From contig JACPFQ010000001.1 in NCBI GenBank assembly GCA_016182875.1, forward strand, positions 85,680 through 149,679: 64,000 nucleotides of DNA, in the 5' to 3' direction. Position numbers and translations under genes: made by a program. This document shows positions 6,213-44,267 of this stretch, in pieces; the first letter of the stretch is position 1; every line of letters starts with the position of its first letter. Source of the stretch: Candidatus Doudnabacteria bacterium (lineage in GTDB: Bacteria; Patescibacteriota; Doudnabacteria; UBA920; O2-02-FULL-48-8). Below the pieces are notes generated by a model. The model searched no databases, was not told the origin of the DNA, and was given only the letters and a program-made list of their open reading frames with translations.

Positions 6213-7254
6213 TGAGCTTTCTTTTGACCTTGTAAATGATAAACACTGTAGCCACCAAAGCAGCCATAACGGAGAGCAAAATTAGAAGCAGAACGAGCTT
6301 GCCCATTGATTGCAGAAACAAGGCTGACGCGCCAAAAATCCCGCTCAAGGCATAAAGGAGCAATACGGCCTGCGGCTCCGAAAGCCCGATATCCAACAGC
6401 CGGAAGTGCAGATGCTTCCGATCTCCTTTAAAGGGATTTTGTCTGTTGAAAACTCGCTGCAAAACCACCCAAAACGCATCCATCACCGGAATGCCGAGCA
6501 CCAGGACGGCAGTCGCTATTTTGCCTCCTGAGACTATGGCCAAGATGGCCAGAATAAAGCCGGCAAAAGTGCTGCCCCCTTCTCCCAAAAAAATCCTCGC
6601 GGGATGAAAATTCAAAATAAGGAATCCCAGAAGCGCTCCAGCGAAAGTGATGGAAAGAAGCGCTGTCTGGGGCTGCATGACTTCCGGCGTGAGCGACAGT
6701 CCAAACAAAACTAAAGCTGAAATGGCGGAAATCCCCGTCGTCAGGCCGTCCATGCCATCCAAAACCTTGGTGGTAAAGGTCATGGTTAGAATCCAAATAA
6801 AAACTATGACCGATGACCATAACGATGACAAAAGAATAACTCCGCCAGTTAAGGGATTATGAATGCTCACTGCCGAAATGCCGGAAGAAACCACGACCAA
6901 AGCCGCAAGAATGGGAAAAATTACCGAGTACTGGGGAGCCAGGCGGTATTTGTCGTCCAGATATCCGCCAATCATAAGGATAGCGCCTCCGGCCCAAATC
7001 GCGGCAAGAATTTTAAGCGGTATGTTGCCACCAATCAAATATCCCAAAAGCACGCCTACGGTAAAGGTGACCAGAAAAAAGCTTCCGAAAATTGCCAAGC
7101 CGCCCATGGTCGGGACCGGATGCTTATGCAGCCTCCGCTCGTTATCCGGAATGTCCAGAATCTTTCTTCTTACGGCGATTCGAGCGACCAGGAAAGTTCC
7201 GATAAATGAAATAAGGAATGCCAGCGCGAAGGAAATGAAGTAAATAGAATTCAT
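6205..7254 (-). CDS. Glycosyltransferase family 4 (WecA/TagO/MraY-like polyprenyl-phosphate sugar-1-P transferase)
   Basis: 'KHPVPTMGGLAIFGSF', 'LDDKYRL', 'KVLDGMDGLTTG', and a multi-TM topology. The start is taken at MNSIYF; the longer ORF overlaps the upstream gene. Confidence 0.85.
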   Translation of the reverse strand: MNSIYFISFALAFLISFIGTFLVARIAVRRKILDIPDNERRLHKHPVPTMGGLAIFGSFFLVTFTVGVLLGYLIGGNIPLKILAAIWAGGAILMIGGYLDDKYRLAPQYSVIFPILAALVVVSSGISAVSIHNPLTGGVILLSSLWSSVIVFIWILTMTFTTKVLDGMDGLTTGISAISALVLFGLSLTPEVMQPQTALLSITFAGALLGFLILNFHPARIFLGEGGSTFAGFILAILAIVSGGKIATAVLVLGIPVMDAFWVVLQRVFNRQNPFKGDRKHLHFRLLDIGLSEPQAVLLLYALSGIFGASALFLQSMGKLVLLLILLSVMAALVATVFIIYKVKRKLNE

Positions 7255-7258
7255 ACGG

Positions 7259-8647
7259 TCATTTAACCCGGGCTTCTTCCAGCTGTTCCAGCGAGAGCGG
7301 GTGTTTGCGGTGCTTGGGCGTGATGAAAAATTCCATGTACTTTCCAAACATCAGCCTGGTTTGGGCGTCGATCGCAGGCGCTGAACCGAAGACAGATGCG
7401 ACCAGCGGGCTGAACACCCATTGAAAAATCATGGAGAAGTATTTCCAGCGGCTGTATTCTTTGGGCTTGGGCGGCAGCAGCACCAAATTCACGTATACGG
7501 AAAAAATCAGGAAGAAAGTCGCCACACTCATAATTATCCTGGTCATGAATGGCAGGTTGACTGCCAGCACGGTTTGTCCGAACCTGTCTCCGCCCAAAAT
7601 CAGCGGCAGCCAGCCCAAGATGGCAATCATAATCGAGGCCGTGGCCCAGAAATAATGCCCTTCAATGAGCCTTTCCGCGTACAACAGCCGCTTCCAAAGC
7701 GGAATTCTATTGTTTTTCACAAACTCCGGAATGACCAAGGATAGCTCGGTCACGCCCCAAGCCCACCTCCTTTTTTGCTTATATTGGGCAACCAGGGTTT
7801 CCCAGTAGGTTTTTCCCAAAACCGCGTCCATGGAAACCGTGGTGAATAAAGGCTGGGTGCTGTAGTCGCCGTTGAAATGCAGGAAGCACTGCCAGAAGAT
7901 GTGCGAGTCATCCGGGATAATGTCTACGCGCCAAAACCCAACGTCGACCAGGGTCCTAAAGCTCATGGCGTGGGAAGAAAAAGTTATCAAACGGTCCGGA
8001 CGCGAGGCTTCCACCAGCTGCCAAAAAGATGAGGAAGTCGCGATTACCCGCGCAATCGCCGGCGTGTCCCAAATATTGTTATGGAACATCGGCATTGGCT
8101 GATAGCTCATCTGAAAAGGTTTTTGCGCCGTCAGAAAATAAAAGGCCAATTGGGCAAAGTAGCTGTATGAGACGGTGGTGTCCGCGTCGAATGCCGAAAC
8201 AATCACGTCCTCATATGGGATTCGCAGCTCATCAATGAGTTTCTGCGCTTGCTTCGCGGCATAAGTTATATTGGCGCCCTTGACCCTGGCTTCTCCTGCG
8301 ACATGGTCTGGATGAATGGTGGCCAAGAATTTAAAAAACTTATCTGAATATTTGGCTTTCAAATATTCTATTTTCGGCCGAGCAGACTCTCTTTCCCGCT
8401 CTTCAGTTGCCAAAACAAGAATTATCCGCTCCTTGGGATAATCGGCGGATAAACAAGATTCGATGGAAGAAGAAAGCACCGACACGTCTTCGGTGACTGT
8501 CGGCAGAATAATCAAATGGTAAATTCTTTTCCAGTCAAGATTGCGCCGCAGCGGAATTTGGTTGATTCGGGAAAGCTGGTCTTGATAAAATACCTTCCAT
8601 TTCTTATTTTGAGCTTTGTCATATTCCACCGACAACTCAAACCTCAA
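7259..8647 (-). CDS. Processive family-2 glycosyltransferase (cellulose/chitin-synthase-like, QxxRW)
   Basis: 'AFDADTTV' with D,D,D motifs, 'QKRRWAWG' (Q-x-x-R-W), and C-terminal TM helices. Confidence 0.8.
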   Translation of the reverse strand: MRFELSVEYDKAQNKKWKVFYQDQLSRINQIPLRRNLDWKRIYHLIILPTVTEDVSVLSSSIESCLSADYPKERIILVLATEERERESARPKIEYLKAKYSDKFFKFLATIHPDHVAGEARVKGANITYAAKQAQKLIDELRIPYEDVIVSAFDADTTVSYSYFAQLAFYFLTAQKPFQMSYQPMPMFHNNIWDTPAIARVIATSSSFWQLVEASRPDRLITFSSHAMSFRTLVDVGFWRVDIIPDDSHIFWQCFLHFNGDYSTQPLFTTVSMDAVLGKTYWETLVAQYKQKRRWAWGVTELSLVIPEFVKNNRIPLWKRLLYAERLIEGHYFWATASIMIAILGWLPLILGGDRFGQTVLAVNLPFMTRIIMSVATFFLIFSVYVNLVLLPPKPKEYSRWKYFSMIFQWVFSPLVASVFGSAPAIDAQTRLMFGKYMEFFITPKHRKHPLSLEQLEEARVK

Positions 8648-25844: not shown

Positions 25845-26003
25845 ATATTTATCCATAATGGCAGTTGCATCGTAACCATACTCTTCGGCTTGTTTCAAGA
25901 TTTCTTTCAACTCACCTTTCTTTATAAGAATAAACCCTGATTTTCTCAGGGCCTTAAGGATTCTCGACTGCGAGACATCAGACGGTAACTTAGGTGGTAA
26001 CAT
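25845..26003 (-). pseudogene. HicA-like toxin remnant (52 aa, lacks the central GSH segment)
   Basis: 'MLPPKLPSDVSQSRILKALRKSGFILIKKGE..LKEILKQAEEYG' matches the HicA N- and C-terminal segments but not the catalytic core. Overlaps the upstream gene by 14 nt. Confidence 0.35.
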
Positions 26004-26328
26004 GAACTAATTGATTTTGTTTCTCAAACAGGTCACCTTTGATATTGATTAAGGCAGGGTGGCAGAACCGCGCCGGAACTTCAAACGCTGTAAAAATAGC
26101 ATCTTTGATATTGTGCTCTAATTCCTCTATTGTGGCCCCACTGGTGATTATAGTACCTCGAGTGTAGTCAACAGAGCGGGCAACGAAGTATGATTGTCCG
26201 TCTTCTTCAACTTTCTCAAATCGAAAATTAATACCTCTACCCCTTAACTCAACAAGCATATCTTCTAGATTATCATGAGCTTGATTTTTTGTAGCAGTAT
26301 ATGATTGTATTCTTTGTAGTAATCTCAT
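25990..26328 (-). CDS. HicB/UPF0150-like antitoxin-fold protein
   Basis: 'FRFEKVEEDGQSYFVARSVDYTRGTIITSGATIEELEHNIKDAIFTAFE'. Confidence 0.5.
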   Translation of the reverse strand: MRLLQRIQSYTATKNQAHDNLEDMLVELRGRGINFRFEKVEEDGQSYFVARSVDYTRGTIITSGATIEELEHNIKDAIFTAFEVPARFCHPALINIKGDLFEKQNQLVHVTT

Positions 26329-26331
26329 GAT

Positions 26332-26403
26332 TTAATTATAGTCTAATCGTTTTAGGTGGTCAATAAACAAAAACCCAACAGCCACCATCAAAAAATCTCT
26401 CAT
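26332..26403 (-). pseudogene. Truncated duplicate of the 5' end of gene 25499-25831 (MRDFLMVAVGFLFIDHLKRLDYN*)
   Basis: ATGAGAGATTTTTTGATG plus a conserved upstream 'TTAATTAAA' are identical to the intact gene start. Confidence 0.5.
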
Positions 26404-26441
26404 AAATTATTTAATTAAATTCCAAGAATTCAGATTTTTAC

Positions 26442-26850
26442 CTACTGAACCATAATAGTATAGTTTAGAGTAATAACACCAGTTTTTAATTTATGAAATA
26501 CAAAAAGATACGCAGGTTTGTTCCGCTGATTTTTCTTAATCTTTAATTTCCTACTAACCTGGTCCAATAACTTTATTGGTAAGATAATAAATTCGTTGAT
26601 TCCCGTTTCACGGGTACGCGCTACTAGCACAGTAAAAACTCTTGACTCAACAAACTGAAAAGTGCCCAGTCTTATTCCAATGCTTTGTCTTGACCTGAAT
26701 AAGATAAGTCCTTGCTTCTTTTATTGCAGCAATATCCACACCATAATCAACCGGCAAAATATTTGCATTAAACCCCCGAAACAAAAGCTCGCTCATAACA
26801 GCAGCTTCTCCGCCTTTACCAGTAAAGATATTGATTGATCTCTTGTCCAT
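26442..26850 (-). other. Two small ORFs (62 and 67 aa); the 67-aa ORF has a PD-(D/E)xK-like signature (VDYGVDIAAIKEARTYLIQVK), possibly nuclease gene remnants
   Basis: ORFs at 26442-26630 and 26647-26850, in a region full of gene fragments. Confidence 0.3.
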
Positions 26851-26906
26851 AGATAAAGTCTACCACAAAAGAAAAAGCGTCTTTAGCCAACGTCAACCTT
26901 TATGAT

Positions 26907-26937
26907 ATTCTCACATTCTCAAGAATATTGGAATGTC
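26907..26937. promoter_or_regulatory. 31-bp repeat copy 3
   Basis: Identical core. Confidence 0.45.
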
Positions 26938-27040
26938 AATTCCGTTTTCGACACATTTGTACCAATATCCGAATTGCACCTGCCCAGCCGTCTGGCGGGG
27001 TAATTAAGCAAATCAAGGTTCGATCATGAAGAGTTCTAAT

Positions 27041-27071
27041 ATTCTCACATTCTCAAGAATGTCGGAATGTC
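27041..27071. promoter_or_regulatory. 31-bp repeat copy 4 (variant ..AAGAATGTCGGAATGTC)
   Basis: Truncates the gene-start fragment at 27045-27107. Confidence 0.45.
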
Positions 27072-27107
27072 TAAGAACCCGACAGCAACCAATAAAAAAT
27101 CTCTCAT
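27045..27107 (-). pseudogene. Second truncated duplicate of the 25499-25831 gene start (MRDFLLVAVGFLDIPTFLRM*)
   Basis: Same ATGAGAGATTTTTT start. The reading frame runs into the 31-bp repeat. Confidence 0.45.
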
Positions 27108-27877
27108 AGTGGAATGGATGTAAATGACTGTCGAGAATTTCTTTCAAATTGCCTTAGTTCTTCTTCGCGGATAATCGAATAACGAGAATCATTAAGCCTC
27201 TCCAACGGACAGAAAAATAACCGCGCGGGTTTTTTGGGACTGCCTCCCACTCCGATTACCACAAAAACAGACATCCCCTGTTTTCTACCATATTCTCTAT
27301 AATTTTCTCCCTTCCTTTTGTCCCAGTCTATGCCGCCCTTAAAAAAATATGAGCGATACTTACACTCAACCGCCAATATCTTTCCTGTCCCAATATGCCG
27401 GAAGGTAAAATCAGGATTAGAGTCGGATTCCACTGTCCGTTTAAGAATCTTTGAAAAATCCCTGGTCTTATCAACAACAACCCAGATATCTCTTGGAAAA
27501 AGAGAGGCTACATGGCTTTCGAACTTATAACCTTTTCCGAAGGTGTCATAATAAAGCCAAAGGAAAACCCCGAACACAATCGCGACTACTAAATCTAACA
27601 CCTGCCAAATCTTAGCGTTATGCAGATAAATTGGGACAACCGGATTGAAGAGTATAACTGCTCCAATAAATCCCAGGATCCAGTAAATTTTTCTGCTCCG
27701 GTAAGCAATAAAACTAAGAACAATACCAGCCAAGCTAACAAGCCATCGCAATATGCCAAAGTCGCCTCGATACAAACCCGCCGCTGCGACTAGTAGTGTG
27801 ATGATAACTATCCAGATTAAAATACGCGTTATAACTTCCGGATTCATAAATTTATACCTTTTGCTTAAGTTTACCAC
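27104..27877 (-). CDS. Membrane-anchored NERD (nuclease-related domain) protein
   Basis: 3-4 N-terminal TM helices, then C-terminal 'GKGYKFESHVASLF...DFTFRHIGTGKILAVECKYRS...SVFVVIG', the NERD/PD-(D/E)xK pattern. Confidence 0.6.
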   Translation of the reverse strand: MVNLSKRYKFMNPEVITRILIWIVIITLLVAAAGLYRGDFGILRWLVSLAGIVLSFIAYRSRKIYWILGFIGAVILFNPVVPIYLHNAKIWQVLDLVVAIVFGVFLWLYYDTFGKGYKFESHVASLFPRDIWVVVDKTRDFSKILKRTVESDSNPDFTFRHIGTGKILAVECKYRSYFFKGGIDWDKRKGENYREYGRKQGMSVFVVIGVGGSPKKPARLFFCPLERLNDSRYSIIREEELRQFERNSRQSFTSIPL

Positions 27878-28035
27878 AAAACAAAAACTATCGTCATTTG
27901 ACGTCGTCTAATAATAATTAGTATTCAGGTTATTGACTAATTTACTTCCGAATAATAAAATTAAGGTATGGTGGAGGCGCGAGAGACACCAAAACCACGA
28001 AAGGTCGAAAATAATTAATTTAAAGGACCAATAAA

Positions 28036-28257
28036 ATGGCCAATCAGCATATTGTTTACCGAGGGCACAATGAATGGGCGGTTAGACGCGAAAAAGCTAG
28101 CCGAGATACAATCGTTGTAGACAATCAGCAAGAAGCTTTTGATATTGCAAGAGATATTGCTGAAAATCAAGGTGGCGAAGTGTTTATTCACGGCAGAGAC
28201 GGTAAAATCCGTGAACGGAATACTTACAAGGATGACCCCTATCCGCCAAAGGGTTAA
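28036..28257 (+). CDS. DUF2188-domain protein
   Basis: '...GGEVFIHGRDGKIRERNTYKDDPYPPKG' (DUF2188 C-terminal signature). Confidence 0.65.
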   Translation: MANQHIVYRGHNEWAVRREKASRDTIVVDNQQEAFDIARDIAENQGGEVFIHGRDGKIRERNTYKDDPYPPKG

Positions 28258-28288
28258 TTAATAACCTGAAAATGAAAACAAAAAATTA

Positions 28289-28317
28289 AAAACCGCCAGA
28301 ACTACTGGCGGTTTTTG
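28289..28317. terminator. Bidirectional terminator between the convergent DUF2188 genes
   Basis: AAAACCGCCAG-aacta-CTGGCGGTTTTT. Confidence 0.65.
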
Positions 28318-28323
28318 CTTTAT

Positions 28324-28620
28324 CTAATTTTTAGGTGGATATGGATCAGAAGAATAAAACCTGGTTTCAATAAGGCCATTTCTATTGTGAATAAAGATCT
28401 CTCCCCCATTTTGGCCAGTGTCTTCCCTAGCCTTTGATAAGGCTTCATCACGAGTACTATATCTTTTTTCTTCCCTAGCTCCAATTCTTTTTACTTTCCA
28501 TTCTCCATCTTTTGGAAAAATATGAACATTTCTCTGCCCACGCTTAATAGCCTCAGTATATGATCTTATCTGGGGATTATTCTTATTATTTCTTTTCAAT
28601 GGTATTTCTTTAGGTGCCAT
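28324..28620 (-). CDS. DUF2188-domain protein (paralog)
   Basis: '...NGGEIFIHNRNGLIETRFYSSDPYPPKN'. Confidence 0.65.
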   Translation of the reverse strand: MAPKEIPLKRNNKNNPQIRSYTEAIKRGQRNVHIFPKDGEWKVKRIGAREEKRYSTRDEALSKAREDTGQNGGEIFIHNRNGLIETRFYSSDPYPPKN

Positions 28621-28624
28621 ATGT

Positions 28625-29221
28625 CTATTCTGAAACCAATTTGATTATATCATCTTTAGTATATTGATTTTCTCTTAAATAGGCAAGCAAATCACCTCTA
28701 GTTTCAAATTTTAACTCGGTAAAACTCAAATCTTCCCCTAAATAAGCGTTCTTGATAAGTTTGATCTCTACGTGAGGATAGTTTTCTGCTATCCAAAGCA
28801 AGGTCTTCCTTGCTGAGGAATGTTTTTCATAAAAGTATCTGTCACTAAATTTTCTGTCCCGGTTAAGAAATGCAACGAAGGCTTGTTTGAAATCTTGGGG
28901 CCAAACGGCATGAATTTCTATCTTTTTCTTAGATTTACTAATTCTTCCTATTTTAATTCCTGCGCCTTTTTCGGTTGGAAGTATACCGTCTAGGACGATT
29001 AAATCTTGCTTATCTAAATATTCTGAAAAATATTCGGTTTTTCCAGATGCAGGTCCACCAGACAATAAAACGACCTTTTCAAATTTAGATGTTTTAATTG
29101 TCTCGTAAAGCTTTGCGTCGGCTAACTTAGCAGATTCACTATGAAATTCCTCAGATCGTTCTGGCGAGTATCCTGGTAAATCCTTTTTAATATCATCAGC
29201 AGAAATCAATATCGAAGTCAT
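28625..29221 (-). CDS. P-loop kinase, zeta-toxin/AAA_33-like
   Basis: Walker A 'LSGGPASGKTEYF', about 200 aa, nucleotide-kinase-like. The family assignment is tentative. Confidence 0.45.
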   Translation of the reverse strand: MTSILISADDIKKDLPGYSPERSEEFHSESAKLADAKLYETIKTSKFEKVVLLSGGPASGKTEYFSEYLDKQDLIVLDGILPTEKGAGIKIGRISKSKKKIEIHAVWPQDFKQAFVAFLNRDRKFSDRYFYEKHSSARKTLLWIAENYPHVEIKLIKNAYLGEDLSFTELKFETRGDLLAYLRENQYTKDDIIKLVSE

Positions 29222-29326
29222 TTATATAAATTTATTCATTTTCTTCAATTTCAAATCCTAGTTTGTTTTGCAGTTCTTTCGGTTGTAATAATAAGGTAAA
29301 ATAACCTAAAACTCCTTCAATCCGTA

Positions 29327-29644
29327 TTAATAAAATTCTCTATCAACATAAATTTCTGAAGAATAAATCTTACGTTCTGGGCCGCTCATTACTAATCGTG
29401 GCTTAATTTCTGATTGAGGTATTGTAAAGTCATGTAAATCTTCTCCAGATGCTACAGCTAGCTCTTTTATGCAATCATTAAACTCATTAGCATATTTCCC
29501 TTGTACATGAGATTTAGGCAAATTATTTTTTAACGCTGTCAATTTAGATAACGATCTGGCGAGTTGCTTATCCATAATTGAAGGATTCTTATATTTTAGA
29601 AAAACCAAAATCTTTTCCGACAGGTTTAAGTTCTTGATTATCAA
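29327..29644 (-). CDS. Hypothetical 105-aa protein, translationally coupled to the upstream EVE-nuclease gene
   Basis: ATGA overlap with the 29641-30693 gene. No recognisable domain. Confidence 0.4.
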   Translation of the reverse strand: MIIKNLNLSEKILVFLKYKNPSIMDKQLARSLSKLTALKNNLPKSHVQGKYANEFNDCIKELAVASGEDLHDFTIPQSEIKPRLVMSGPERKIYSSEIYVDREFY

Positions 29645-30693
29645 CAGTGTTCTAAATAATTAATAAAATCAATATATTTTTTATCGGTTGGTTCCCGTGA
29701 TGGGACTAAAATCCTGTATTGGTCCTCAAAAGTTATATTCTTTTCTTTTTTGAATTTATTGATCTCAAAATAATCATATTCATATAGTTGCACTATTCCT
29801 TTTCGTGCTTGGACTTTAAAATTTCTGTTTTCTGTACTTTTTACTTCAAAGAGAAATGAACGCTTACCGTCATGCGCAAACAAATCAACATACTCATTAG
29901 AAAGCGTAGCATATCCCTTCTTTCTAAATATGCTTATCAGTTGTTCAAGGACAGAATGATGAGATGCTTCTGCTCGAGCCAGAATATCATTATCTCGCTC
30001 GACTATAGAATAAGGTTTAATTATTAATCGCTTCTTGATTGATTCTAAAAATCTCAAGGAAGCTGCGTGTCTTAGAGTTTCAGTTGCATTATGAACTTCA
30101 ACTAAATCTGATGCCTTCTGTTCAATCGCGGGACCACGAGTTGAGTGTCCGGTATATAAATGTAATGGCCTATTTTGAAATAAAATTTGTTGAGCAACTT
30201 CGGGCCGTACCGTGGAAAAACTACCCATTTGTGGGAAACCCTTAATTTCTGAAATTGGGATTCGATTTCCAACCAGTTGACTAATCAGTGGAACCGTAGC
30301 AACATCATTGGCTGGTGTGGGTGATTCCCAATTTGCAGGATTAGGTAATTCGCCGAATAAATATATTTCAGTTAACGGAACTAATAATGGCCAACGGTTT
30401 ACATTGTTTTTTATTTCATAATGCCATAAATAGTTATTTTTTATCGAAAAATCAAAACCAACTACTCCAATTCCGATTATGCCGGATTTAGCTACGCCCG
30501 GGAAAGCTGAAGTATCTCCTGATGAACTATGAATAAAAAATATATCGCCTGTTTGCAATTTTTCCCAATCTTTTCTATTTTTGTCTTTAGCTTCAAGTCC
30601 CCAAGTAAAATATTTAATAGCGGTCAACCAGTGCTCAGGCGGACCAGTAAACTTAAAAAACTGTTTTTGATTTAGAGCCGAAGAAAGATCCAT
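29641..30693 (-). CDS. EVE (PUA-like) domain fused to a PD-(D/E)xK nuclease (DUF3883-like); putative modification-dependent restriction endonuclease
   Basis: N-terminus 'KQFFKFTGPPEHWLTAIKYFTWGLE...LQTGDIFFIHSSSG...GIIGIGVV' is EVE-like. C-terminus 'VDLFAHDGKRSFLFEVKSTENRNFKVQARKGIVQLYEY' carries D...E-x-K. Confidence 0.55.
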   Translation of the reverse strand: MDLSSALNQKQFFKFTGPPEHWLTAIKYFTWGLEAKDKNRKDWEKLQTGDIFFIHSSSGDTSAFPGVAKSGIIGIGVVGFDFSIKNNYLWHYEIKNNVNRWPLLVPLTEIYLFGELPNPANWESPTPANDVATVPLISQLVGNRIPISEIKGFPQMGSFSTVRPEVAQQILFQNRPLHLYTGHSTRGPAIEQKASDLVEVHNATETLRHAASLRFLESIKKRLIIKPYSIVERDNDILARAEASHHSVLEQLISIFRKKGYATLSNEYVDLFAHDGKRSFLFEVKSTENRNFKVQARKGIVQLYEYDYFEINKFKKEKNITFEDQYRILVPSREPTDKKYIDFINYLEHC

Positions 30694-31040
30694 TATAATT
30701 TATTGTACTTAGTATGTTTCCCTTTGGCTTTGTCTACTGGGTATTTCTTCTCGTTCTGTTCCATTTTTTTATGAAAAGCTTCAATTATATCAACACCAAT
30801 ATCATTACTGATAAGCAATACCCAATAAAGGACGTCGGACAATTCTTCAGCTACTTCTTCTTTATGATCTTTCACATACGCTTCCATTTCTTCTTTGTTT
30901 TTCCATTGAAAATGCTCAGCCACTTCCGCAGCTTCTAACATCAAGGACAAGGCTAAGTCTTTAGGATTATGAAACTGCTTCCACTCTCTATCATCTCTGT
31001 ATTTAATTATTCTGTCAGTTAAATCTTTTATATCCGACAT
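30693..31040 (-). CDS. MazG-like nucleoside-triphosphate pyrophosphohydrolase (all-alpha dUTPase/dCTPase-like)
   Basis: 'EWKQFHNPKDLALSLMLEAAEVAEHFQWK...ELSDVLYWVLLISNDIGVDI'. Its stop overlaps the start of the EVE gene. Confidence 0.7.
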   Translation of the reverse strand: MSDIKDLTDRIIKYRDDREWKQFHNPKDLALSLMLEAAEVAEHFQWKNKEEMEAYVKDHKEEVAEELSDVLYWVLLISNDIGVDIIEAFHKKMEQNEKKYPVDKAKGKHTKYNKL

Positions 31041-38153: not shown

Positions 38154-39206
38154 CTACCTCGGGATTTGCTCAAACTGCGTGACCATCAAGACGTCCTTCA
38201 GGCCTTCCAAATCCTCGAGCACGATCCCCGCTCCGCGCACGACCGCTGTCAGCGGGTCGTCCGCGAGGGTTACCGGCATTTGCGTTTCCGAGGCCACGAG
38301 CCTGTCCAGTCCGCGCAAAAGCGCGCCGCCGCCGGCCAGCGTAATGCCGCGCTCCATTATGTCCGCCACCAGCTCTGGCGGAGTTTCTTCCACCGCGGTT
38401 TTGATGTTGTTGACGATGACCCGCACCGAGCGCTGCAAGGCCGCCCTGATCTGGTCGTCCGTGACTGTCACCTCTTTGGGCAGGCCGGTCACCAAATCTC
38501 TTCCCCGGATCTGGGTTTTCATTTTCTCCTTAAGCGCGTAGGCGGAGCCGATTTTGATTTTGACCTCTTCCGCCGTCCGCTCGCCTAAAAGCAAATTAAA
38601 TTCATCGCGGGCGAATTGAATGATGTTTTCGTTCATTTCGTCTCCGGCCACGCGGATGCTGCGGGAAATTACGATTCCACCCAGGGAAATCACGGCAATC
38701 TCAGCCGTTCCCCCGCCGATGTCCACAATCATGGAGCCGGTGGCGTCCTGCACCGGAAGCCTGGCTCCGATAGCCGCGGCCATCGGCTCTTCCACTAGGA
38801 GCGCCATCCGGGCTCCGGCGTTAAGCGTGGCGTCCTGGACTGCCCTTTTTTCCACTTCGGTCACTCCCGACGGTATCCCCACCACCACCCGCGGCCGGTT
38901 AAGAAAGCTAAAAGCCGTATGATTGACTTTTTCAATGAAATATCGAAGCATCTGCTCTGTCACTTCGAAATCGGAAATTACCCCATCGACCAGAGGCCTA
39001 TGAGCCACGATGTGGGCCGGGGTCCTGCCGACCATGCGCTTGGCTTCTTCGCCAATGGCCAAAATCTGCTTGGTCTTCTGGTTTATGGCCACGACCGAGG
39101 GCTCATTAATAACAATACCCTTGCCTTTGACATATACAAGGGTATTGGCAGTGCCTAAGTCAATTCCGATATCTTTGCTGAATCTATTGTAAATGGGATC
39201 GAGCAT
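38154..39206 (-). CDS. mreB: Rod shape-determining protein MreB
   Basis: '[14 protein letters not shown]', 'DIGGGTAEIAVISLGGIV' (actin fold). Confidence 0.93.
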   Translation of the reverse strand: MLDPIYNRFSKDIGIDLGTANTLVYVKGKGIVINEPSVVAINQKTKQILAIGEEAKRMVGRTPAHIVAHRPLVDGVISDFEVTEQMLRYFIEKVNHTAFSFLNRPRVVVGIPSGVTEVEKRAVQDATLNAGARMALLVEEPMAAAIGARLPVQDATGSMIVDIGGGTAEIAVISLGGIVISRSIRVAGDEMNENIIQFARDEFNLLLGERTAEEVKIKIGSAYALKEKMKTQIRGRDLVTGLPKEVTVTDDQIRAALQRSVRVIVNNIKTAVEETPPELVADIMERGITLAGGGALLRGLDRLVASETQMPVTLADDPLTAVVRGAGIVLEDLEGLKDVLMVTQFEQIPR

Positions 39207-40434
39207 TTGCCATCATGTCTTTAATAGCAATTAATTTTGTTTTTGATTCGTTTCTAGATTTTAGCTCGACGCTGTCTTCTTTCAGGGTTTTGTCTGAGAC
39301 TAAAGCCCGCTTTGGGATACCGAGCAGGTCGCTGTCCGTAAGCTTAACGCCTACCGAGACGTCTCTTTGGTCATATAGTACCGAAATGCCGCTTAACTGT
39401 AAAGCTTTGTACAATTTATCGGCTTGCGCAGTATTTTCAGCAATGTTTATCAAATGAACGTCAAATGGCGACACTGCTCGCGGCCAGATAATTCCCTTCT
39501 CGTCATGGAATTTTTCCACAATCACGCCGAGCAGTCGGGAAATGCCAATGCCGTAAGAACCCAAAATCACGGGTCTCTGAGCCCCGCTCTCGTCTTTGAA
39601 GTACAAGCCCAACTGTTCGGATTTAGTCGAGCCAAAACTGAAGATATTTCCAACCTCAGACCCTTTTACTTCTTCAAGCTCCGACCGCTTGACTCCCAAT
39701 TGGGCCATTACCTCGTCAGTCAGGACTTCCTTGTTAATGGCAAGTTTTTTGCCGCGGTGCAAGTAAATCACGTCTTCCCCCGTTTCCGAAAGAGTTTGAA
39801 ATTCGTGGCTGAATTGGGTAAATGCCCCGCCTGAGGCAAAGGTTAAGAAAGTGCTGTCGCCCAAGCCCGTCCGTTCAAAAACTTTGTGATACGCCTGAAT
39901 GGCTTTGTTATAAAATTCTTCGTGAGCTTCTTTACTAATACTGTAAGAATACAAATCCTTCATCAAAAACTCGCGGCCGCGCAGAATGCCGCTTTTGGCC
40001 CTCAGCTCGTTTCGAAGTTTAGTCTGGAATTGATATATGTATACCGGCAGGTCGCGGTAGCTGTTGATGTAAGCAGTCATCATTTCGGTAATCGGCTCTT
40101 CGTGCGACCAGGCCAGGCCGACTTCGTTGCCGTTTTTAAGCTGCGACTTAAACCAAATATCCACCTTTTTATCATCCCACCGGTCAGTTCGCTCCCAAAG
40201 CTCTTTGCGCTGCAAGCTGGTCATGAGCAGCTCCTGGCCGCCAATCGCATTCATCTCTTCGCGCACTATATTTTTGATTTTTTCGATGACCTTAAGCCCC
40301 AAAGGCAAATAGGCATAGGCGCCGGCCATTTGCTTGTGAATGTAGCCTGCGCGGATGAGAAGCTGGGCATTGACCGACTGCTCGTCCTTCGGCGCTGTTC
40401 TCAAAGTTTTGGTAAACAATTCTGATTGAAGCAT
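39184..40434 (-). CDS. proS: Prolyl-tRNA synthetase (short bacterial form lacking the large editing insertion)
   Basis: 'LFTKTLRTAPKDEQSVNAQLLIRAGYI...LPLGLKVIEKIKNIVREEM', class II core, and a C-terminal anticodon-binding domain. Confidence 0.9.
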   Translation of the reverse strand: MLQSELFTKTLRTAPKDEQSVNAQLLIRAGYIHKQMAGAYAYLPLGLKVIEKIKNIVREEMNAIGGQELLMTSLQRKELWERTDRWDDKKVDIWFKSQLKNGNEVGLAWSHEEPITEMMTAYINSYRDLPVYIYQFQTKLRNELRAKSGILRGREFLMKDLYSYSISKEAHEEFYNKAIQAYHKVFERTGLGDSTFLTFASGGAFTQFSHEFQTLSETGEDVIYLHRGKKLAINKEVLTDEVMAQLGVKRSELEEVKGSEVGNIFSFGSTKSEQLGLYFKDESGAQRPVILGSYGIGISRLLGVIVEKFHDEKGIIWPRAVSPFDVHLINIAENTAQADKLYKALQLSGISVLYDQRDVSVGVKLTDSDLLGIPKRALVSDKTLKEDSVELKSRNESKTKLIAIKDMMANARSHLQ

Positions 40435-40447
40435 GGATATTAGCGCA

Positions 40448-40503
40448 ACCCTGAACTTGTTTCAGGGTCTCGTCCTGAGATGCTGAATTAAATTCAGCAT
40501 TAC
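40448..40503. repeat. Double-hairpin repeat containing TGAGATGCTGAAT-taa-ATTCAGCATT (family also at 59080-59134)
   Basis: Hairpin CCCTGAAC..GTTTCAGGG, then the conserved GAGATGCTGAAT/ATTCAGCAT palindrome, then the (A/G)CG..TTTATTA tail. Confidence 0.55.
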
Positions 40504-40601
40504 GTATTTATTAAGCCCTTGAATTATATCAGTTGCTAAAAGCATTGACAAAAGCTCCAAAAAAGAGTGTAATTATATATCACTAACCAAGGAGGTATCC
40601 G

Positions 40602-40802
40602 ATGATGAGCGCGAAGATTGCCCACGTGATTTTCACTAGGCTCAACGCCTACGCCGCCCGGCACGACTTGACCCTGCCCGAGCTTCCGAACGTGGTCAGG
40701 GACCTGGCCGACGGCGTCGAGGAAGTCATCGCAGAGGAGGCGCAAGCCCGGCCCGCCGGCGACGCGGCAATGGGACTGGCCTCGGACGAACACCGAGGCT
40801 GA
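40602..40802 (+). CDS. Hypothetical 66-aa protein, the first ORF of the GC-rich cassette-like island
   Basis: SD AAGGAGG 7 nt upstream. GC about 62%. Confidence 0.45.
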   Translation: MMSAKIAHVIFTRLNAYAARHDLTLPELPNVVRDLADGVEEVIAEEAQARPAGDAAMGLASDEHRG

Positions 40803-40824: not shown

Positions 40825-40869
40825 ACGCGAGGAGTGCAGGAAACAGACACCCTAATGCACTCCCCGCGT
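40825..40869 (+). terminator. Island hairpin type H, copy 1: ACGCGAGGAGTGCA...TGCACTCCCCGCGT
   Basis: 13-bp imperfect stem followed by TTCTAATTTTTCC. Homologous hairpins at 42428-42468 and 43545-43608. Confidence 0.55.
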
Positions 40870-40893
40870 TCTAATTTTTCCGCATTAGCAAAA

Positions 40894-40969
40894 ATCTAAC
40901 CATTTCGAGCGCGAAGCGCGAGAAATCGCTCTTATGAGGGATCTCTCCCGTTGGTCGAGATGGTTACAT
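40894..40969. repeat. attC-like imperfect inverted repeat ATCTAACCATTTCGAG...TCGAGATGGTTACAT
   Basis: Outer 7-mers ATCTAAC (= RYYYAAC) and GTTACAT (one mismatch to GTTRRRY), with inner 9-bp inverted repeats. Preceded by the shared motif TTTTTCCGCATTAGCAAA, also found at 42780-42797. Confidence 0.3.
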
Positions 40970-40997
40970 TCTTGGTGCTGCGAAAACTTGTTAGGAG

Positions 40998-41926
40998 GAA
41001 ACAACATGACCCTCAACCCTTATCTCATTACCAGCATGCGAGGAAAGAGAGATGGGATTGCGGGTCATTCAGAAAGAAGACTCGCAATTGTTTTGCCAAG
41101 CGGTCTGTTTGCCGGCTACCTTGGCGGTGCCGCATGTTGGGCGCTGCACAAGCTGGGCTTCGCAAATGTACCGACTACCATCGTGGGTTTTTCGGCGGGA
41201 GCGCTCACCGGCGCTTTCTGGGTTTCGGGTCAGCTTAATGACCACGTCATGAACCTGGCCCTGACCTACCACGACCGCAATCGCGACGTGGTCCGGCCCT
41301 GGCGGATCGGCAAGATCTTTGACGTTGACCGAGTCATCGACTCGATCGCCCAGGATTTCGATCTTGCCACTTTCATGGCTTCCCCGATCAACTTGTTGGT
41401 CGGGGTTGCGACAGAGGGTGGACACGGCGAACTCCTTGATGTCAAAACGGCCAAACCCGGCCCATTCGATGCGCTTAAGGCAGCGATCGCTATGCCCTGG
41501 CCCATGTTCAATCGCCACATCGAGGTCAACGGCCACCTCTATGGCGACCAGATCTTCGATCCTCTGCCGATTGAAGACATCATCAAGGCGACCAATCCCA
41601 CGGACGTCTTGATAATTGCTAATCAACCAAAGCGACCGATCGACGAATGGCGATTGAGCGGTGCCGATCTGGCGCTGGCAGCCCTGCGTCTCACCGCTCC
41701 CGAGGTGGCGATGAAAATGCTCGGGCGCAAAGCCAGACTTCGCAAAGCACTGCGTTTCTGCGAAGAGTGTCCCGACATCAACATCGGCGTCCTCTATCCG
41801 CCAAGTTCATCGCGCGGACTGACTAGAGATGCCGAATCACTTCGCCACGCCATCATCGAAACTGCCAAGGCGACAGCCGAGGCATTCGGTGAACAACTCA
41901 ACATCTCGCAAGTAGTGAGGGGATGA
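40998..41926 (+). CDS. Patatin-like phospholipase
   Basis: Oxyanion-like 'LPSGLFAGYLGG', nucleophile elbow 'GFSAGA' (G-x-S-x-G), SD AGGAGG. The ORF track start at 40934 lies inside the inverted repeat; the ATG at 40998 is preferred. Confidence 0.6.
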
Positions 41927-42414
41927 TAATGACCGACATGCTGTACCCAAGGCTCATCTTCGCGATTCACTTCACGCTTGCGGATTACGCTGCATGGCAA
42001 AAAATCACCCTGTCGGATATGACTAAGCTCGTGGAGCGTCTGGCAAGTACTCTCGAGCAGAGCTACAACGGGGCGACCAAGAAGCCTCCGAAGAACGCCA
42101 AAGCCACGATCAAACGTGTGCTCGTAGAATACACTTTGAGAGACACCTGCCGCGCCCAGACTCGAAGGCGAGCGAGGATGGGTGCAGGTCGGCGCAAGCG
42201 TGCGTTGACTGGCGGGGCAAGCAGAATCAACCTGCCGGAAATGACTACGCTTGTAGAAAGTCTTACAGGCGCTGTCGACAAGGTCTACGCACTGGAGGCA
42301 GGGACACACAGCAAAGTCGAACGGCCCGCTGCTCGAGAGGCCAAAAGTCTAAGTGGCCTCAGTGCTGCTGACATTCTCGCACACCTTGACTTTGTGCACA
42401 CGTACTTCGACTGA
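41923..42414 (+). CDS. Hypothetical 163-aa protein, coupled to the patatin gene by an ATGA overlap
   Basis: GC-rich ORF with no recognisable domain. Confidence 0.45.
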   Translation: MIMTDMLYPRLIFAIHFTLADYAAWQKITLSDMTKLVERLASTLEQSYNGATKKPPKNAKATIKRVLVEYTLRDTCRAQTRRRARMGAGRRKRALTGGASRINLPEMTTLVESLTGAVDKVYALEAGTHSKVERPAAREAKSLSGLSAADILAHLDFVHTYFD

Positions 42415-42427: not shown

Positions 42428-42468
42428 GCGCGCGGAGTGGAAGGCTTACACAGCTTCCCTCCCCGCGT
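42428..42468 (+). repeat. Island hairpin type H, copy 2: GCGCGCGGAGTGGAAGGCT..AGCTTCCCTCCCCGCGT
   Basis: Same arm sequences as copy 1. Followed directly by SD AAAGGAGGA. Confidence 0.5.
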
Positions 42469-42493: not shown

Positions 42494-42757
42494 GTGAGCA
42501 CGATTGCAGAGGTCGTCGACTTTGTACTTCAGGCGCAGGCACGGATGAATACGGCCAAATGCGATTCGGCGTTCCGGCTCGAGTTTCATCGACGGCTAGG
42601 AGCGCTCGTCGATGATGTTCGGCGGGTCTACCACCTCAACACCCAGCCGCTGCTTAAGATGGATCGGACAAGGCAACTGCCTGACTCGTCGCAGGTCATC
42701 TTTGATCAACTCAAACAGCAGCTCGCAACCGTCCCAAACAACCCCCGTACTGAGTGA
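42494..42757 (+). CDS. Hypothetical 87-aa protein (GTG start)
   Basis: SD AAGGAGGA 7 nt upstream of GTG. Confidence 0.4.
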   Translation: MSTIAEVVDFVLQAQARMNTAKCDSAFRLEFHRRLGALVDDVRRVYHLNTQPLLKMDRTRQLPDSSQVIFDQLKQQLATVPNNPRTE

Positions 42758-42870
42758 AAGCGTCAGTACGGGGACCCGTTTTTCAGCATTAGCAAATGGT
42801 CACTGATCCCGCCTTCGCCAAGGCTTCGGCGGGCAGGCACGGATTACGGATCACAGATCACTTGGTACTG
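42743..42870. repeat. Hairpin CCCCGTACTGA..TCAGTACGGGG, motif TTTTTCAGCATTAGCAAA, and a second attC-like structured inverted repeat
   Basis: Parallels the 40825-40969 architecture: hairpin, then GCATTAGCAAA motif, then inverted repeat TGGTCACTGATCC...GGATCACAGATCAC with an inner CCCGCC..GGCGGG hairpin. Confidence 0.35.
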
Positions 42871-42923
42871 CGGAGCGAAAACCGCAACCTTTCCGCCCAC
42901 CCAGGGCGATGTTTGGAGGATCA

Positions 42924-43274
42924 ATGGAATCGTTCATGGTTACTCAGACGGCTCTGGCTGGCGTCAGTTTTATCGTCGCTGCGTTCTATCCCTACCGCTC
43001 AGGGCCCGCTTACGCGATGCTGTGGCTCACAGGCTTCGTCGCGGTCCTCGGAGTACTACTTGCCGTGGGCGTTTACTTCGATGCCCATGTTTTCTACCCC
43101 GAAGCGCTGAATGACGGCCCGCTCGGCGTGGGTATGTTCGTCGACCTGCCGGACGCGGTAGAATGGCAGATTCTGAGGGACCTGGCACTCAGCCTCAGCT
43201 TCTACTTGGCGCCTGTCACCACATTCGGGCTCGGCCGCCTGGCCCGCCGCCGCATCGGCCGTCTGACAAGCTAA
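42924..43274 (+). CDS. Hypothetical membrane protein (about 117 aa, 3 TM)
   Basis: SD GGAGGATCA-ATG. Confidence 0.4.
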   Translation: MESFMVTQTALAGVSFIVAAFYPYRSGPAYAMLWLTGFVAVLGVLLAVGVYFDAHVFYPEALNDGPLGVGMFVDLPDAVEWQILRDLALSLSFYLAPVTTFGLGRLARRRIGRLTS

Positions 43275-43301
43275 CGCAATTCAAAACGCGAGGAGTCATT
43301 C

Positions 43302-43535
43302 ATGATTTGCGACGTGACCGAAGCGGTGCAGATACTCCGCCGACTGGCGGAGAAGCTGGAAAGGGGGGACGGATTTTCGGACGATGACGGGGTCGAGCTT
43401 GGCCGGGCGAGCGAGGCAGGCACGTGCAGAAGCCCCGGCAGAACGCCGCCCAAAGACTTCGTGGGAGCGTTCAACCACGGATATTACCGCTCTCGAGATA
43501 GGCGCAACGGCCGTACGCCCGGTCCAGCCGACTGA
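43302..43535 (+). CDS. Hypothetical 77-aa protein
   Basis: SD within the half-copy of hairpin H (AAAACGCGAGGAGTCATTC-ATG). Confidence 0.4.
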   Translation: MICDVTEAVQILRRLAEKLERGDGFSDDDGVELGRASEAGTCRSPGRTPPKDFVGAFNHGYYRSRDRRNGRTPGPAD

Positions 43536-43544: not shown

Positions 43545-43608
43545 ACGATCTAAAACGCGCGGAGTGCAGCGGACTTGAAACCCAAGCCCCGAAGCACTCC
43601 CCGCGTAT
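43545..43608 (+). terminator. Island hairpin type H, copy 3, with a T8 tract: a strong rho-independent terminator closing the island
   Basis: ACGCGCGGAGTGC...GCACTCCCCGCGT-ATTTTTTTT. Confidence 0.7.
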
Positions 43609-43632: not shown

Positions 43633-43674
43633 CATTAGTTAACAATTTATGCGATAGCAGATTTTGTTAACAGC
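43633..43674. repeat. 42-bp direct repeat (copy 1) at the 3' boundary of gene 43674-44267, with internal inverted repeat GTTAACAA..TTGTTAAC
   Basis: CATTAGTTAACAATTTATGCGATAGCAGATTTTGTTAACAGC, about 85% identical to 44240-44281. Confidence 0.6.
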
Positions 43675-44267
43675 TAAAGACCAAACTGTTTAATCAGGTC
43701 CTTCTGGATATCGATGCTTTTGACAAGCATTATTCGAACAAATGGACGAACTTCATAAAGCTCGCTGATAAAATCAATTTCGTCTTCGCATGCATATGGG
43801 TAAACCCACACACTCTTCTGCAAGCGATAAAATCCCAGCTCTCTTAATTTTGCCCGCATAGATTCTCTCCCTTGCTTGTACTTCTCCGGAATATCAAAGA
43901 TCACAGCCCGCCACAGCTTATCCCACTTTGCAGGCTTTTTGATATGCAATTCTTCAAGTTTATATTTTAAAAACTTGTTCTGACCGTTTTTTGTCAACCG
44001 GACCACAGTCTTGCCGTCTTCCTTGGAGATACCAATAAGCTTCCTCTGTTCCAAATTTCTTAAAGAGAGGTAAACCTTACGTCGATGCCACTTCGGAATG
44101 TTTAATTCTTCAGCAATAGCCATTAAGATCAATGGACCAGCAACTGGAATTGCTATAACTCCAGCCGCTGCAATACAACCCAAAATAACCTTGGCAATTT
44201 CAGATCTTTTGCTTTTATTTTCGCTTAAATCATTCATACCGTTAGTTAACAACTTAGGCGATAGCAT
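43674..44267 (-). CDS. PaaX-like protein: N-terminal TM segment, wHTH, and a Cas2/PaaX_C-like C-terminal domain
   Basis: 'LSLRNLEQRKLIGISKEDGKTVVRLTKNGQ' (wHTH) and 'WRAVIFDIPEKYKQGRESMRAKLRELGFYRLQKSVWVYPY' (Cas2/PaaX_C fold pattern). AT-rich, unlike the adjacent island. Confidence 0.5.
   Translation of the reverse strand: MLSPKLLTNGMNDLSENKSKRSEIAKVILGCIAAAGVIAIPVAGPLILMAIAEELNIPKWHRRKVYLSLRNLEQRKLIGISKEDGKTVVRLTKNGQNKFLKYKLEELHIKKPAKWDKLWRAVIFDIPEKYKQGRESMRAKLRELGFYRLQKSVWVYPYACEDEIDFISELYEVRPFVRIMLVKSIDIQKDLIKQFGL

Follow-up and report, generated by a model that had tools for sequence, protein, structure and literature searches.

What is a patatin-like gene, tightly coupled to a small gene without known relatives, doing in a compositionally foreign segment of the genome of an ultra-small CPR bacterium, Candidatus Doudnabacteria? 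A preliminary description of this DNA had proposed that the two genes are cargo of an island and that they form an effector with its immunity or regulator protein, possibly in the manner of abortive-infection systems. The window referred to below is the whole stretch of 64,000 nucleotides that was analysed. The best explanation we can offer is that the locus is an accessory lipid hydrolase operon with regulators encoded by the same island, a reading for and against which our confidence is evenly balanced. We do not think that the partner is an immunity protein or that the pair is an anti-phage module.

The island occupies about 40.6-43.6 kb of the window and holds six genes in roughly 3 kb. 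Its GC content is 57.8% versus 46.8% (about 2.8 standard deviations), the highest of any 3-kb stretch in the window, and its tetranucleotide distance of 0.44 versus a median of 0.19 also makes it the most deviant 3-kb stretch. On one side it is flanked by genes for PBP2, MreD, MreC, MreB, and ProRS, and on the other side by genes for a PaaX/Cas2-like protein, RseP, Frr, and a BNR protein. In related genomes frr, rseP, proS, and mreB are contiguous; in the closest related locus (L012) 35 bp separate rseP from proS, and the two genes are adjacent in many other relatives as well. None of the 80 related loci examined carries the island ORFs at the same junction. The deviant composition and this absence from 80 related genomes confirm that the region is an island, and as an insertion into the conserved rseP-proS junction it is specific to the lineage. 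Among Doudnabacteria, the junction appears to be variable in what is inserted there. Of the usual hallmarks of mobility, there is no tRNA in the window, no integrase-like Pfam match in the island, and no direct repeat flanking it, the sole direct repeats being internal. The island DNA has no similarity to phages or plasmids. Five independent sample assemblies carry it with the same sequence, which says little about selection because the assemblies represent one population.

The patatin-like serine hydrolase gene lies at 41006-41926 on the + strand, the strand on which all the genes, hairpins, and motif copies of the island described below are read. The mechanical ORF around it extends over 40934-41926 (330 aa, + strand). 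An AGGAGG ribosome-binding site at 40993-40998 precedes ATG 41006, which yields a protein of 306 aa; this start is called by both NCBI and Logan and agrees with the N-termini of relatives. The preliminary description had placed the pair at 40998-42414. Both ORFs are present on the + strand and the end at 42414 stands, but 40998 falls inside the ribosome-binding site and out of frame, the true start being 41006. The protein has no signal peptide.

An exhaustive phmmer search with the 306-aa protein retrieves a patatin subfamily of 515 cluster representatives at E<=1e-3, the clusters being formed at 50% identity. The relatives match the protein end to end, over about 300 aa, at 26-33% identity. 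The best relative is only about 33% identical. Within the aligned family, the window protein reaches 32% identity to its closest member and 28% on average, and judged by best match it is the most divergent of them. Its match to Pfam Patatin (PF01734) has E 5e-4 and 20.5-20.7 bits, below the gathering cut-off of 27.7 bits. PF01734 is matched at E<=0.01 by all 40 aligned sequences (39 relatives and the window protein), the best at 7.5e-20. Since the window protein matches relative P0003 at E 1.7e-33, and 39 of 39 aligned relatives match PF01734, its patatin homology is transitive. A k-mer indexed homology search with the patatin returned only the protein itself; the k-mer search with the alignment of the patatin family has at least two proteins among the matches listed. 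Viral contigs gave no match to the patatin.

The catalytic residues are well preserved. G33, S63, and D181 are invariant in all 40 aligned sequences, so the Ser-Asp dyad is kept on the alignment. The GFSAGA string first taken as the patatin core is present as G61-F-S63-A-G65-A, a G-x-S-x-G nucleophile elbow that the family profile aligns to the Ser motif of PlpD, just as it aligns D181 to the PlpD 'vDGg' motif. A C-terminal P-T-D motif is also common to the window protein and its relatives. The Gly-rich oxyanion loop that had been reported holds only in part. Where the family has G-G-G-M-R/K-G, the window protein has S32-G33-L34-F35-A36-G37: G33 is the sole box glycine of three that is kept, although the trailing Gly37 is present, and the R/K position (R/K in 28 of 40 sequences, missing in 12 of 40 relatives) is Ala. 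As a result, the G-G-x-R/K anion-binding or oxyanion box expected after strand 1 is lacking in the window protein. The residue after D181 is Gln, versus Gly in 35 of 40.

The fold agrees with the homology. The AF2 model, built with the family alignment as input, has a pLDDT of 89.2 and a pTM of 0.90, and its best Foldseek match is PlpD (E 7e-11, TM 0.62/0.74). PlpD, CapV, CapE, and patatin-17 are all matched at probability 1.00, which identifies the patatin alpha/beta/alpha fold, and further matches are generic viral patatins or RssA. The family profile matches PlpD (5fqu) at E 4e-11 across the Ser and Asp motifs, and it also matches CapE, VipD, and ExoU. The 306-aa protein is thus a patatin-fold member by homology, with fold and dyad in accord, and in this homology and in the island status we are highly confident. 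Chemistry is another matter: because the anion box does not match, the homology stands and classical phospholipase chemistry is uncertain. Hydrolase activity is slightly more probable than not. Phospholipase activity is plausible but putative, because the glycine/arginine box is degenerate (SGLFAG versus GGGMRG). Given an anion box without Arg/Lys and the Gln after D181, the protein could be catalytically impaired or a pseudoenzyme.

The named members of the subfamily, and those with readable gene contexts, are Patescibacteria, including Uhrbacteria. In three of eight contexts an alpha/beta-hydrolase gene adjoins the patatin relative. A Hydrolase_4 gene lies directly upstream in L010, and a Ser_hydrolase gene adjoins the relative in L144 and L008; L092 has a second patatin and ACPS (holo-ACP synthase) beside it, L011 has a C39 peptidase and an ABC transporter, and L093 and L094 have housekeeping genes around it. 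Gene neighbourhood in four of the eight contexts would point to lipid metabolism for the subfamily. No homologue of the coupled partner stands beside any patatin relative examined. The downstream ORFs of about 165 aa in L008 and L092, considered as counterparts of the partner, are unrelated: one encodes a membrane protein, the other a secreted protein. The partner also has no similarity to the N-terminal extension of about 100 aa in long-form patatin relatives, with which it might have been equated in a Rosetta-stone argument. Nor does the pair recur in a metabolic setting, for the reason that the pair as such shows no conservation; what is conserved is the patatin gene by itself, and its contexts are not those of defence.

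The partner, p161, is a basic orphan protein encoded at 41929-42414 (161 aa, or 163 aa from the ATGA start at 41923). The overlap described earlier is really present, with ATG 41923 and the patatin stop TGA at 41924-26, and the partner end at 42414 is correct. A GAGGGG ribosome-binding site (41917-41922) ends immediately before ATG 41923. It is 6 nt ahead of ATG 41929, the start called by Logan (161 aa), and 15 nt ahead of ATG 41938, the start called by NCBI (158 aa). The start is most likely 41929, two bases past the patatin stop. As the genes either overlap by 4 nt or are separated by a 2-nt gap, patatin and partner are translationally coupled. In p161, as in the neighbouring genes, GC3 (0.62) is higher than GC2 (0.48). 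The protein has a pI of 9.95, an Arg/Lys-rich centre with a net charge of +14 across residues 41-100, and an internal repeat (ITLSDMTKLVERL / INLPEMTTLVESL; E 3e-4, equalled by none of 2000 shuffles).

It was correctly described as uncharacterised. There is no significant match of p161 in Pfam, PHROG, NCBIfam, PADLOC, or PDB sequences, none in viral contigs, and none by tblastn against phages and plasmids. An index of 5.8 billion proteins, which reaches relatives sharing exact 5-residue words, returned only p161 itself. Its single-sequence AF2 model has a pLDDT of 41 and is unusable. The one relative is found within the island. The first island gene, o66 (40602-40802), forms its own transcription unit behind an AAGGAGG ribosome-binding site and encodes an acidic protein of 66 aa (pI 4.9). 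Its N-terminal half aligns to partner residues 4-44 (BLASTP E 1e-4) and its C-terminal half to residues 99-142 (Smith-Waterman score 51, reached by one of 2000 shuffles). By these alignments o66 is a compact paralogue of p161. The partner has no significant match to a DNA-binding domain: ROS_MUCR matches it at E 0.13, which is sub-threshold, as is the match of a two-sequence profile to the HRDC domain of RecQ (2rhf, E 0.24), and the 56B_RHH match to o66 (E 0.1-0.2) is non-significant.

Terminator hairpins delimit three transcription units in the island. The first ends after o66 with H1, a hairpin with a U-tract and thus an intrinsic terminator (40826-40868; -22.3 kcal/mol, z -5.1). The patatin unit ends with p87 (42494-42757), an orphan 87-aa ORF that has a GTG start and the ribosome-binding site AAAGGAGG, and whose terminator hairpin with a U-tract lies at 42743-42773 (-22.2 kcal/mol, z -4.8). 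The remaining genes are p121 (42909-43274), a predicted membrane protein (GRAVY 0.73, 16 hydropathy windows >1.6) whose true start is likely ATG 42924 after a GGAGGA ribosome-binding site, and the orphan 77-aa ORF p77 (43302-43535, from the ORF list), the last gene of the island. Apart from one chance-level PADLOC match of p87, the ORFs p87, p121, and p77 match no family in Pfam, PADLOC, PHROGs, or NCBIfam, and PDB sequences gave nothing significant for them either.

Two kinds of repeated element run through these units. H1 is copy 1 of an island-specific hairpin, CGCG-N-GGAGTG...CTCCCCGCG. Copy 2, H2, has no U-tract and lies between the partner and p87 (42429-42467; -24.8 kcal/mol, z -3.7), and copy 3, H3, has a U-tract and is the terminator at the right edge (43556-43605; -29.8 kcal/mol, z -6.9). 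Rfam has no match on the island, and 49 metagenome matches to the hairpin are unrelated GC-rich sequences consistent with chance. The other element is an 18-nt direct repeat. Copy 1, TTTTTCCGCATTAGCAAA, is found upstream of the patatin operon (40875-40892), and copy 2, TTTTTCAGCATTAGCAAA, identical to it at 17 of 18 positions, is found upstream of the third transcription unit (42779-42796). A half-site of the motif, TTCAGCAT, recurs within a palindrome at 40480-40500. The 18-nt motif may serve as an operator or promoter element. For units 2 and 3 no promoter was recognised, and the alignment of the regions upstream of them as homologous promoters is unconvincing outside the motif.

In the reading that we favour, the six-gene island of about 3 kb is a horizontal acquisition and lies on the opposite strand within the rseP-(paaX-like)-proS junction of Candidatus Doudnabacteria. 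Its largest gene encodes a compact, cytoplasmic patatin-fold serine hydrolase, whose Ser63-Asp181 dyad may hydrolyse acyl esters of lipids or transfer their acyl groups. Because of its degenerate Gly-Gly-x-Arg anion box, the enzyme may act weakly, or on a substrate other than a classical phospholipid. The very basic, helical, and internally repeated p161 is translated in step with the hydrolase. Together with o66 it may act as an island-specific regulator, most likely by binding nucleic acid. The candidate target is the 18-nt motif that precedes transcription units 2 and 3; upstream of the first unit there is a related but shorter half-site. Candidate DNA targets would be TTTTTCMGCATTAGCAAA and the palindrome at 40480-40500, and the CGCG-N-GGAGTG hairpins would be the candidate RNA. 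A regulatory role of the partner is our preferred guess and a tentative one, by itself rather less likely than not.

Two other accounts take the island to be less than a working operon. It could be decaying cargo left over from a plasmid, a phage, or some other element, with a relaxed and possibly inactive patatin and functionless small ORFs. Such decay would fit the degenerate motifs by the active site of the most divergent family member, the five orphans among six island ORFs, and the missing integrase, tRNA, and flanking direct repeat. Yet no island ORF is broken, every one of them has a ribosome-binding site, and the three units are cleanly bounded by terminators; Ser63 and Asp181 are retained and the patatin model is confidently folded, while the identity among five assemblies counts slightly against decay, given that they are one population. 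We consider decay unlikely. Very unlikely is that the 161-aa ORF arose by chance in GC-rich DNA and the patatin is a solo gene. Long chance ORFs do occur here, as a 171-aa antisense ORF overlapping p161 demonstrates, no p161 homologue was found anywhere searched, and AF2 confidence is low. Against chance stand the ribosome-binding site 6 nt ahead of ATG 41929, the GC3 excess shared with neighbouring genes, a gene call by two independent pipelines, and the paralogy with o66 and in-frame internal repeat, both of which beat shuffled sequences.

Under the effector-immunity proposal, the two genes would form a toxin-antidote or abortive-infection pair. The patatin would be the toxin and degrade membranes, the co-translated partner would hold it in check or license its action upon infection, and a second antidote or a repressor would be supplied by o66. 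In its favour, the two genes are tightly coupled and lie inside a foreign island at a variable junction, the CBASS patatin effectors CapV and CapE are among the structural neighbours, and the o66/partner motif loosely recalls ribbon-helix-helix antitoxins (E 0.1). Like a type II toxin-antitoxin system, the locus has two small genes that are co-transcribed and translationally coupled (stop 41924-26; starts 41923 or 41929), but the pair does not recur in the other genomes and mobile elements searched, and a patatin is, to our knowledge, not an established type II toxin. PADLOC finds nothing in the six island proteins except a chance-level match of p87 to RT_IV (E 0.021, 12 bits), and its CapV and CapE models do not match the patatin at E<=1. 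No CD-NTase cyclase is found next to the patatin by Pfam and PADLOC on the island ORFs. It had been said at the outset that no cyclase or sensor is visible, and among PBP2, MreBCD, ProRS, the PaaX/Cas2-like protein, RseP, Frr, and the BNR protein there is indeed none, nor any other defence gene. CapV and CapE are no closer to the window protein than PlpD or plant patatin. Since the partner is absent from the neighbourhoods of relatives and from all collections searched, there is no conserved patatin-partner pair. The occurrence of the subfamily as a solo gene in housekeeping contexts argues that the patatin is not intrinsically toxic, and its degenerate anion box makes a potent phospholipase less likely. 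With no PADLOC match, no CBASS partner gene, and relatives in non-defence contexts, the proposal is not upheld, and we judge it decidedly unlikely. A bolder variant is very unlikely: patatin, p161, and o66 may constitute a previously unseen, self-contained module in which a new family of small nucleic-acid- or protein-binding repeat proteins gates a membrane-active lipase. Its role might be that of a toxin-antidote or anti-phage switch specific to CPR bacteria, or that of a regulated weapon or harvesting tool aimed at the membrane of the host bacterium, and its location would be a hot-spot where Doudnabacteria strains exchange cargo.

Comparison with known systems sets the proposed accessory hydrolase closest to the compact patatins of Patescibacteria, annotated as 'patatin-like phospholipase family protein' or, in IMG, 'predicted patatin/cPLA2 family phospholipase' (for example, GMQ95256.1, MCX6714294.1, and MFC1612662.1), which we take to be RssA-like and of the COG1752 type. 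They share with it homology over about 300 aa, Gly33, Ser63, Asp181, P-T-D, the lack of a signal peptide, and the same phylum-level host group. The window protein differs in being only 26-33% identical to them, in having SGLFAG for GGGMR/KG and DQ for DG, and in residing beside an orphan partner on a foreign island, whereas the relatives are solo genes or stand beside an alpha/beta-hydrolase. The best solved structural and profile match is the passenger domain of PlpD (5fqu / 5fya), a secreted patatin-like lipase of Pseudomonas aeruginosa. In PlpD the patatin is carried as passenger by a type V secretion protein that also has POTRA and beta-barrel domains; the window protein has neither of these domains nor a signal peptide and is 16-19% identical to it. 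CapV and CapE (9jek, 9ion, 9iom) share the patatin fold (TM about 0.57-0.61), and CapE is matched by the family profile at 4e-6 around the Gly box and GxSxG, but identity is 12-16% and the window patatin has no CD-NTase or other CBASS gene nearby. The secreted patatin toxins ExoU (with SpcU) and VipD, which have a chaperone or host activator, resemble it in a recognisable catalytic core and, at the locus, a small adjacent gene. Those toxins exceed 500 aa, have extra domains, and reach a TM of only 0.25-0.42. Chaperones of the SpcU type are small acidic proteins, in contrast to the basic window partner.

The pair is a strain-specific accessory locus and as such matters little. All that it firmly adds is a further, highly divergent member of the patatin-fold hydrolases; the partner protein alone is unusual. 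Of wider interest are the junction and the subfamily. The rseP-proS junction may help to find other accessory cargo in Doudnabacteria genomes. The compact cytoplasmic patatin subfamily is widespread, and its named members come from Patescibacteria, which are unable to make their own lipids. Because an alpha/beta-hydrolase gene adjoins its members in three of the eight contexts, the subfamily is a concrete candidate for lipid salvage or remodelling in Patescibacteria.

The patatin-like gene belongs to an island in a metagenome-assembled genome of Candidatus Doudnabacteria (Patescibacteria/CPR). Six plus-strand ORFs make up the island: o66 (40602-40802), the patatin-like gene (41006-41926; 306 aa), the ORF directly 3' of it, here termed the partner or p161 (41929-42414, or from 41923), p87 (42494-42757), a membrane protein (42909-43274, start probably 42924), and p77 (43302-43535). 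The flanking host genes are all on the minus strand, with PBP2, MreD, MreC, MreB, and ProRS (39184-40434) on one side and a PaaX_M/Cas2-like protein (43674-44267), then RseP, Frr, and a BNR protein, on the other. The patatin-like protein and the partner are identical to NCBI HYV13_00780 and HYV13_00785, respectively.

Against Pfam Patatin, the window protein alone scores 20.7 bits, under the 27.7 threshold, and searches of PADLOC, PHROGs, NCBIfam, and PDB sequences gave no match. When 1.84 billion cluster representatives were scanned exhaustively with phmmer, 515 relatives passed E<=1e-3, of which 155 also passed E<=1e-10; they are proteins of ~300 aa that align end-to-end with 26-33% identity. 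Pfam Patatin is matched at E<=0.01 by 40/40 aligned sequences including the window protein (best 7.5e-20), and the profile of the family alignment matches PlpD (5fqu) at 4e-11, spanning both catalytic motifs, as well as CapE, VipD, and ExoU. The AF2 model built from this alignment is confident (pLDDT 89.2, pTM 0.90); its nearest solved structure is PlpD (E 7e-11, TM 0.62/0.74), followed by CapV, CapE, and plant patatin. Matches among viral proteins are generic patatins or RssA. The window protein adds a new outlier to a known group, the RssA/PlpD-like compact patatins of Patescibacteria.

Because Gly33, Ser63, and Asp181 are invariant in 40/40 sequences, the loss of the Ser-Asp dyad, which the preliminary description had named as evidence against its own reading, is not seen. 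The GFSAG motif recorded there is present, and the Gly-rich loop proves degenerate: the family box G-G-G-M-R/K-G has become S-G-L-F-A-G, with Ala at the position where Arg/Lys is retained in 28/40 relatives. The residue after Asp181 is Gln (Gly in 35/40), and the protein is the most divergent aligned member by best match (best 32%, mean 28% identity). Patatin homology and fold are thus secure; the same does not hold for classical phospholipase chemistry.

The mechanical ORF of the patatin-like gene opens at 40934. ATG 41006 is preceded by AGGAGG, is the start that NCBI and Logan both call, and agrees with the N-termini of relatives; the start proposed earlier, 40998, falls within the ribosome-binding site and out of frame. 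The ATGA overlap with the partner was described correctly (ATG 41923, TGA 41924-41926). Since a GAGGGG ribosome-binding site touches ATG 41923 and lies 6 nt before ATG 41929, the likelier partner is a 161-aa protein starting 2 nt past the patatin stop, rather than one of 163 aa; NCBI uses the third ATG, 41938. The coupling of the two genes holds whichever partner start is used.

The partner has no match in Pfam, PADLOC, PHROGs, NCBIfam, PDB, or any collection searched (proteins sharing exact 5-residue words with it, viral contigs, phages, plasmids). It is very basic (pI 9.95; net charge +14 across residues 41-100), is predicted to be helical at unusable confidence (AF2 pLDDT 41), and repeats one segment internally, ITLSDMTKLVERL / INLPEMTTLVESL (E 3e-4; matched by 0/2000 shuffles). 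The N-half of o66 aligns with partner residues 4-44 (E 1e-4) and its C-half with residues 99-142 (score reached in 1/2000 shuffles); on these alignments, o66 and the partner are paralogous. Their motif has no further occurrence within the window, and hints of a ribbon-helix-helix (E 0.1) and an HRDC-like segment (E 0.24) are both non-significant. The N-terminal extension of long-form patatin relatives, considered as a counterpart of the partner, bears no relation to it.

A hairpin confined to the island is found after o66 (40826-40868), after the partner (42429-42467), and after p77 (43556-43605). The three copies have a common basal stem, CGCG-N-GGAGTG...CTCCCCGCG, with a conserved 1x1 mismatch; their upper stems and loops differ. 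U-tracts follow two of the three, and also a separate hairpin after p87; these look like terminators and therefore predict three transcription units. Upstream of both unit 2 and unit 3 is an 18-nt motif, TTTTTCMGCATTAGCAAA; a palindrome upstream of o66 contains a half-site related to it. Rfam has no match on the island. The 5' arm of the hairpin occurs alone at 43283-43296; it includes a Shine-Dalgarno-like GGAG and also serves as the p77 ribosome-binding site. The divergent promoter region of proS and o66 (40435-40600) contains a predicted minus-strand proS promoter, TTGTCA-17-TATAAT (11/12, with TG), overlapped by a predicted plus-strand o66 promoter, TTGACA-17-TGTAAT, and the proS leader has two hairpins (40450-40468 and a palindrome, 40480-40500).

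Within the window, GC peaks and tetranucleotide usage deviates most in segment 40602-43610. The frr-rseP-proS-mreB genes form a conserved block on one strand in 80 related CPR genomes, none of which carries any island ORF; the rseP-proS gap in the closest of them is 35 bp. A PaaX-like gene occupies the rseP|proS junction in two other Doudnabacteria loci, L028 (64% identity) and L013 (42%), the latter with further genes there. No tRNA, integrase, or flanking repeat was found for the island. Between the PaaX-like gene and proS, L013 carries an unrelated 197-aa ORF and a 104-aa antisense ORF (6138-7756), and L028 a GC-rich 440-bp spacer (7560-8000); in Doudnabacteria, the PaaX-like|proS junction may be a hot-spot where insertions recur. 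The PaaX-like protein of the window (197 aa) looks like a putative membrane-anchored regulator: its N-terminus has a hydrophobic segment, and it combines a winged-helix-like region with a PaaX_M/Cas2-like domain (Pfam E 1e-20). Logan assemblies made independently from five samples match the window at 100% identity; their contigs begin or end at the same three places (40899/40903, 42487/42494, and 42835/42836), in each case immediately 3' of a strong hairpin. Either strain-level variation in the presence of the patatin cassette or a drop in coverage at hairpins could explain this. A second segment that was probably also acquired lies at ~26000-31000: it is low in GC (32-39%), ranks second in the window for deviant tetranucleotide composition, and includes several orphan ORFs besides genes for a DUF6804 protein and a MazG-like pyrophosphatase.

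Named patatin relatives come from Patescibacteria group bacteria and Candidatus Uhrbacteria, annotated as 'patatin-like phospholipase family protein' or 'predicted patatin/cPLA2 family phospholipase'. Eight neighbourhoods were readable. A Hydrolase_4 gene ends 3 nt ahead of the patatin start in L010 (6269-7924), and a Ser_hydrolase gene lies immediately 3' of the patatin in L144 (6001-7748) and two genes upstream in L008 (5726-7942). L092 (1186-3600) has a second, divergently oriented patatin adjoining holo-ACP synthase; in L011 a C39 peptidase precedes the patatin and ABC-transporter genes follow it; in L093 and L094 the patatin sits among ribosomal, translation, or redox genes, and in L007 it adjoins DUF4446. 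No sequence like the partner or another island ORF was found in the six loci searched (L007, L008, L010, L011, L093, and L094), and the ~165-aa ORFs downstream of the patatin in L008 (a membrane protein) and L092 (a secreted protein) are unrelated; the patatin-partner pairing is therefore not conserved. Members of the family are encoded by a solo gene, next to which an alpha/beta-hydrolase gene recurs.

The island is most likely an acquired accessory operon, which would encode a putative divergent lipid or ester hydrolase and island-specific small regulators, o66 and p161, with the repeated DNA motif or the hairpins as their candidate targets; we infer both the enzyme's activity and the partner's role. 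That the island is decaying cargo, a reading to be set beside a degenerate loop and an intact dyad, is unlikely. It is very improbable that the partner, matchless as it is, represents a spurious ORF: paralogy at the protein level, together with the ribosome-binding site and the GC3 pattern, argues that o66 and the partner are both real genes. The preliminary description suggested that the coupled pair could be an effector with its immunity or regulator protein, and mentioned that patatin effectors occur in CBASS and other abortive-infection systems. Defence genes are found in 0/8 of the readable neighbourhoods, and the window patatin is not a CBASS effector; the pair is not demonstrable as a toxin-antitoxin system, nor is it of the ExoU/SpcU type. 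A toxin-antidote or defence module is thus quite improbable.

The only threads worth following are the partner/o66 protein family and a possible lipid-salvage role of the wider patatin family. Genes of the compact patatin subfamily are found time and again close to an alpha/beta-hydrolase gene (Hydrolase_4 or Ser_hydrolase) in Patescibacteria, and this gene pair is a possible lipid-salvage candidate in bacteria unable to make lipids. Such a role would bear on the lipid acquisition of CPR bacteria, which is unexplained (PMC11665869; see also PMC8080830).
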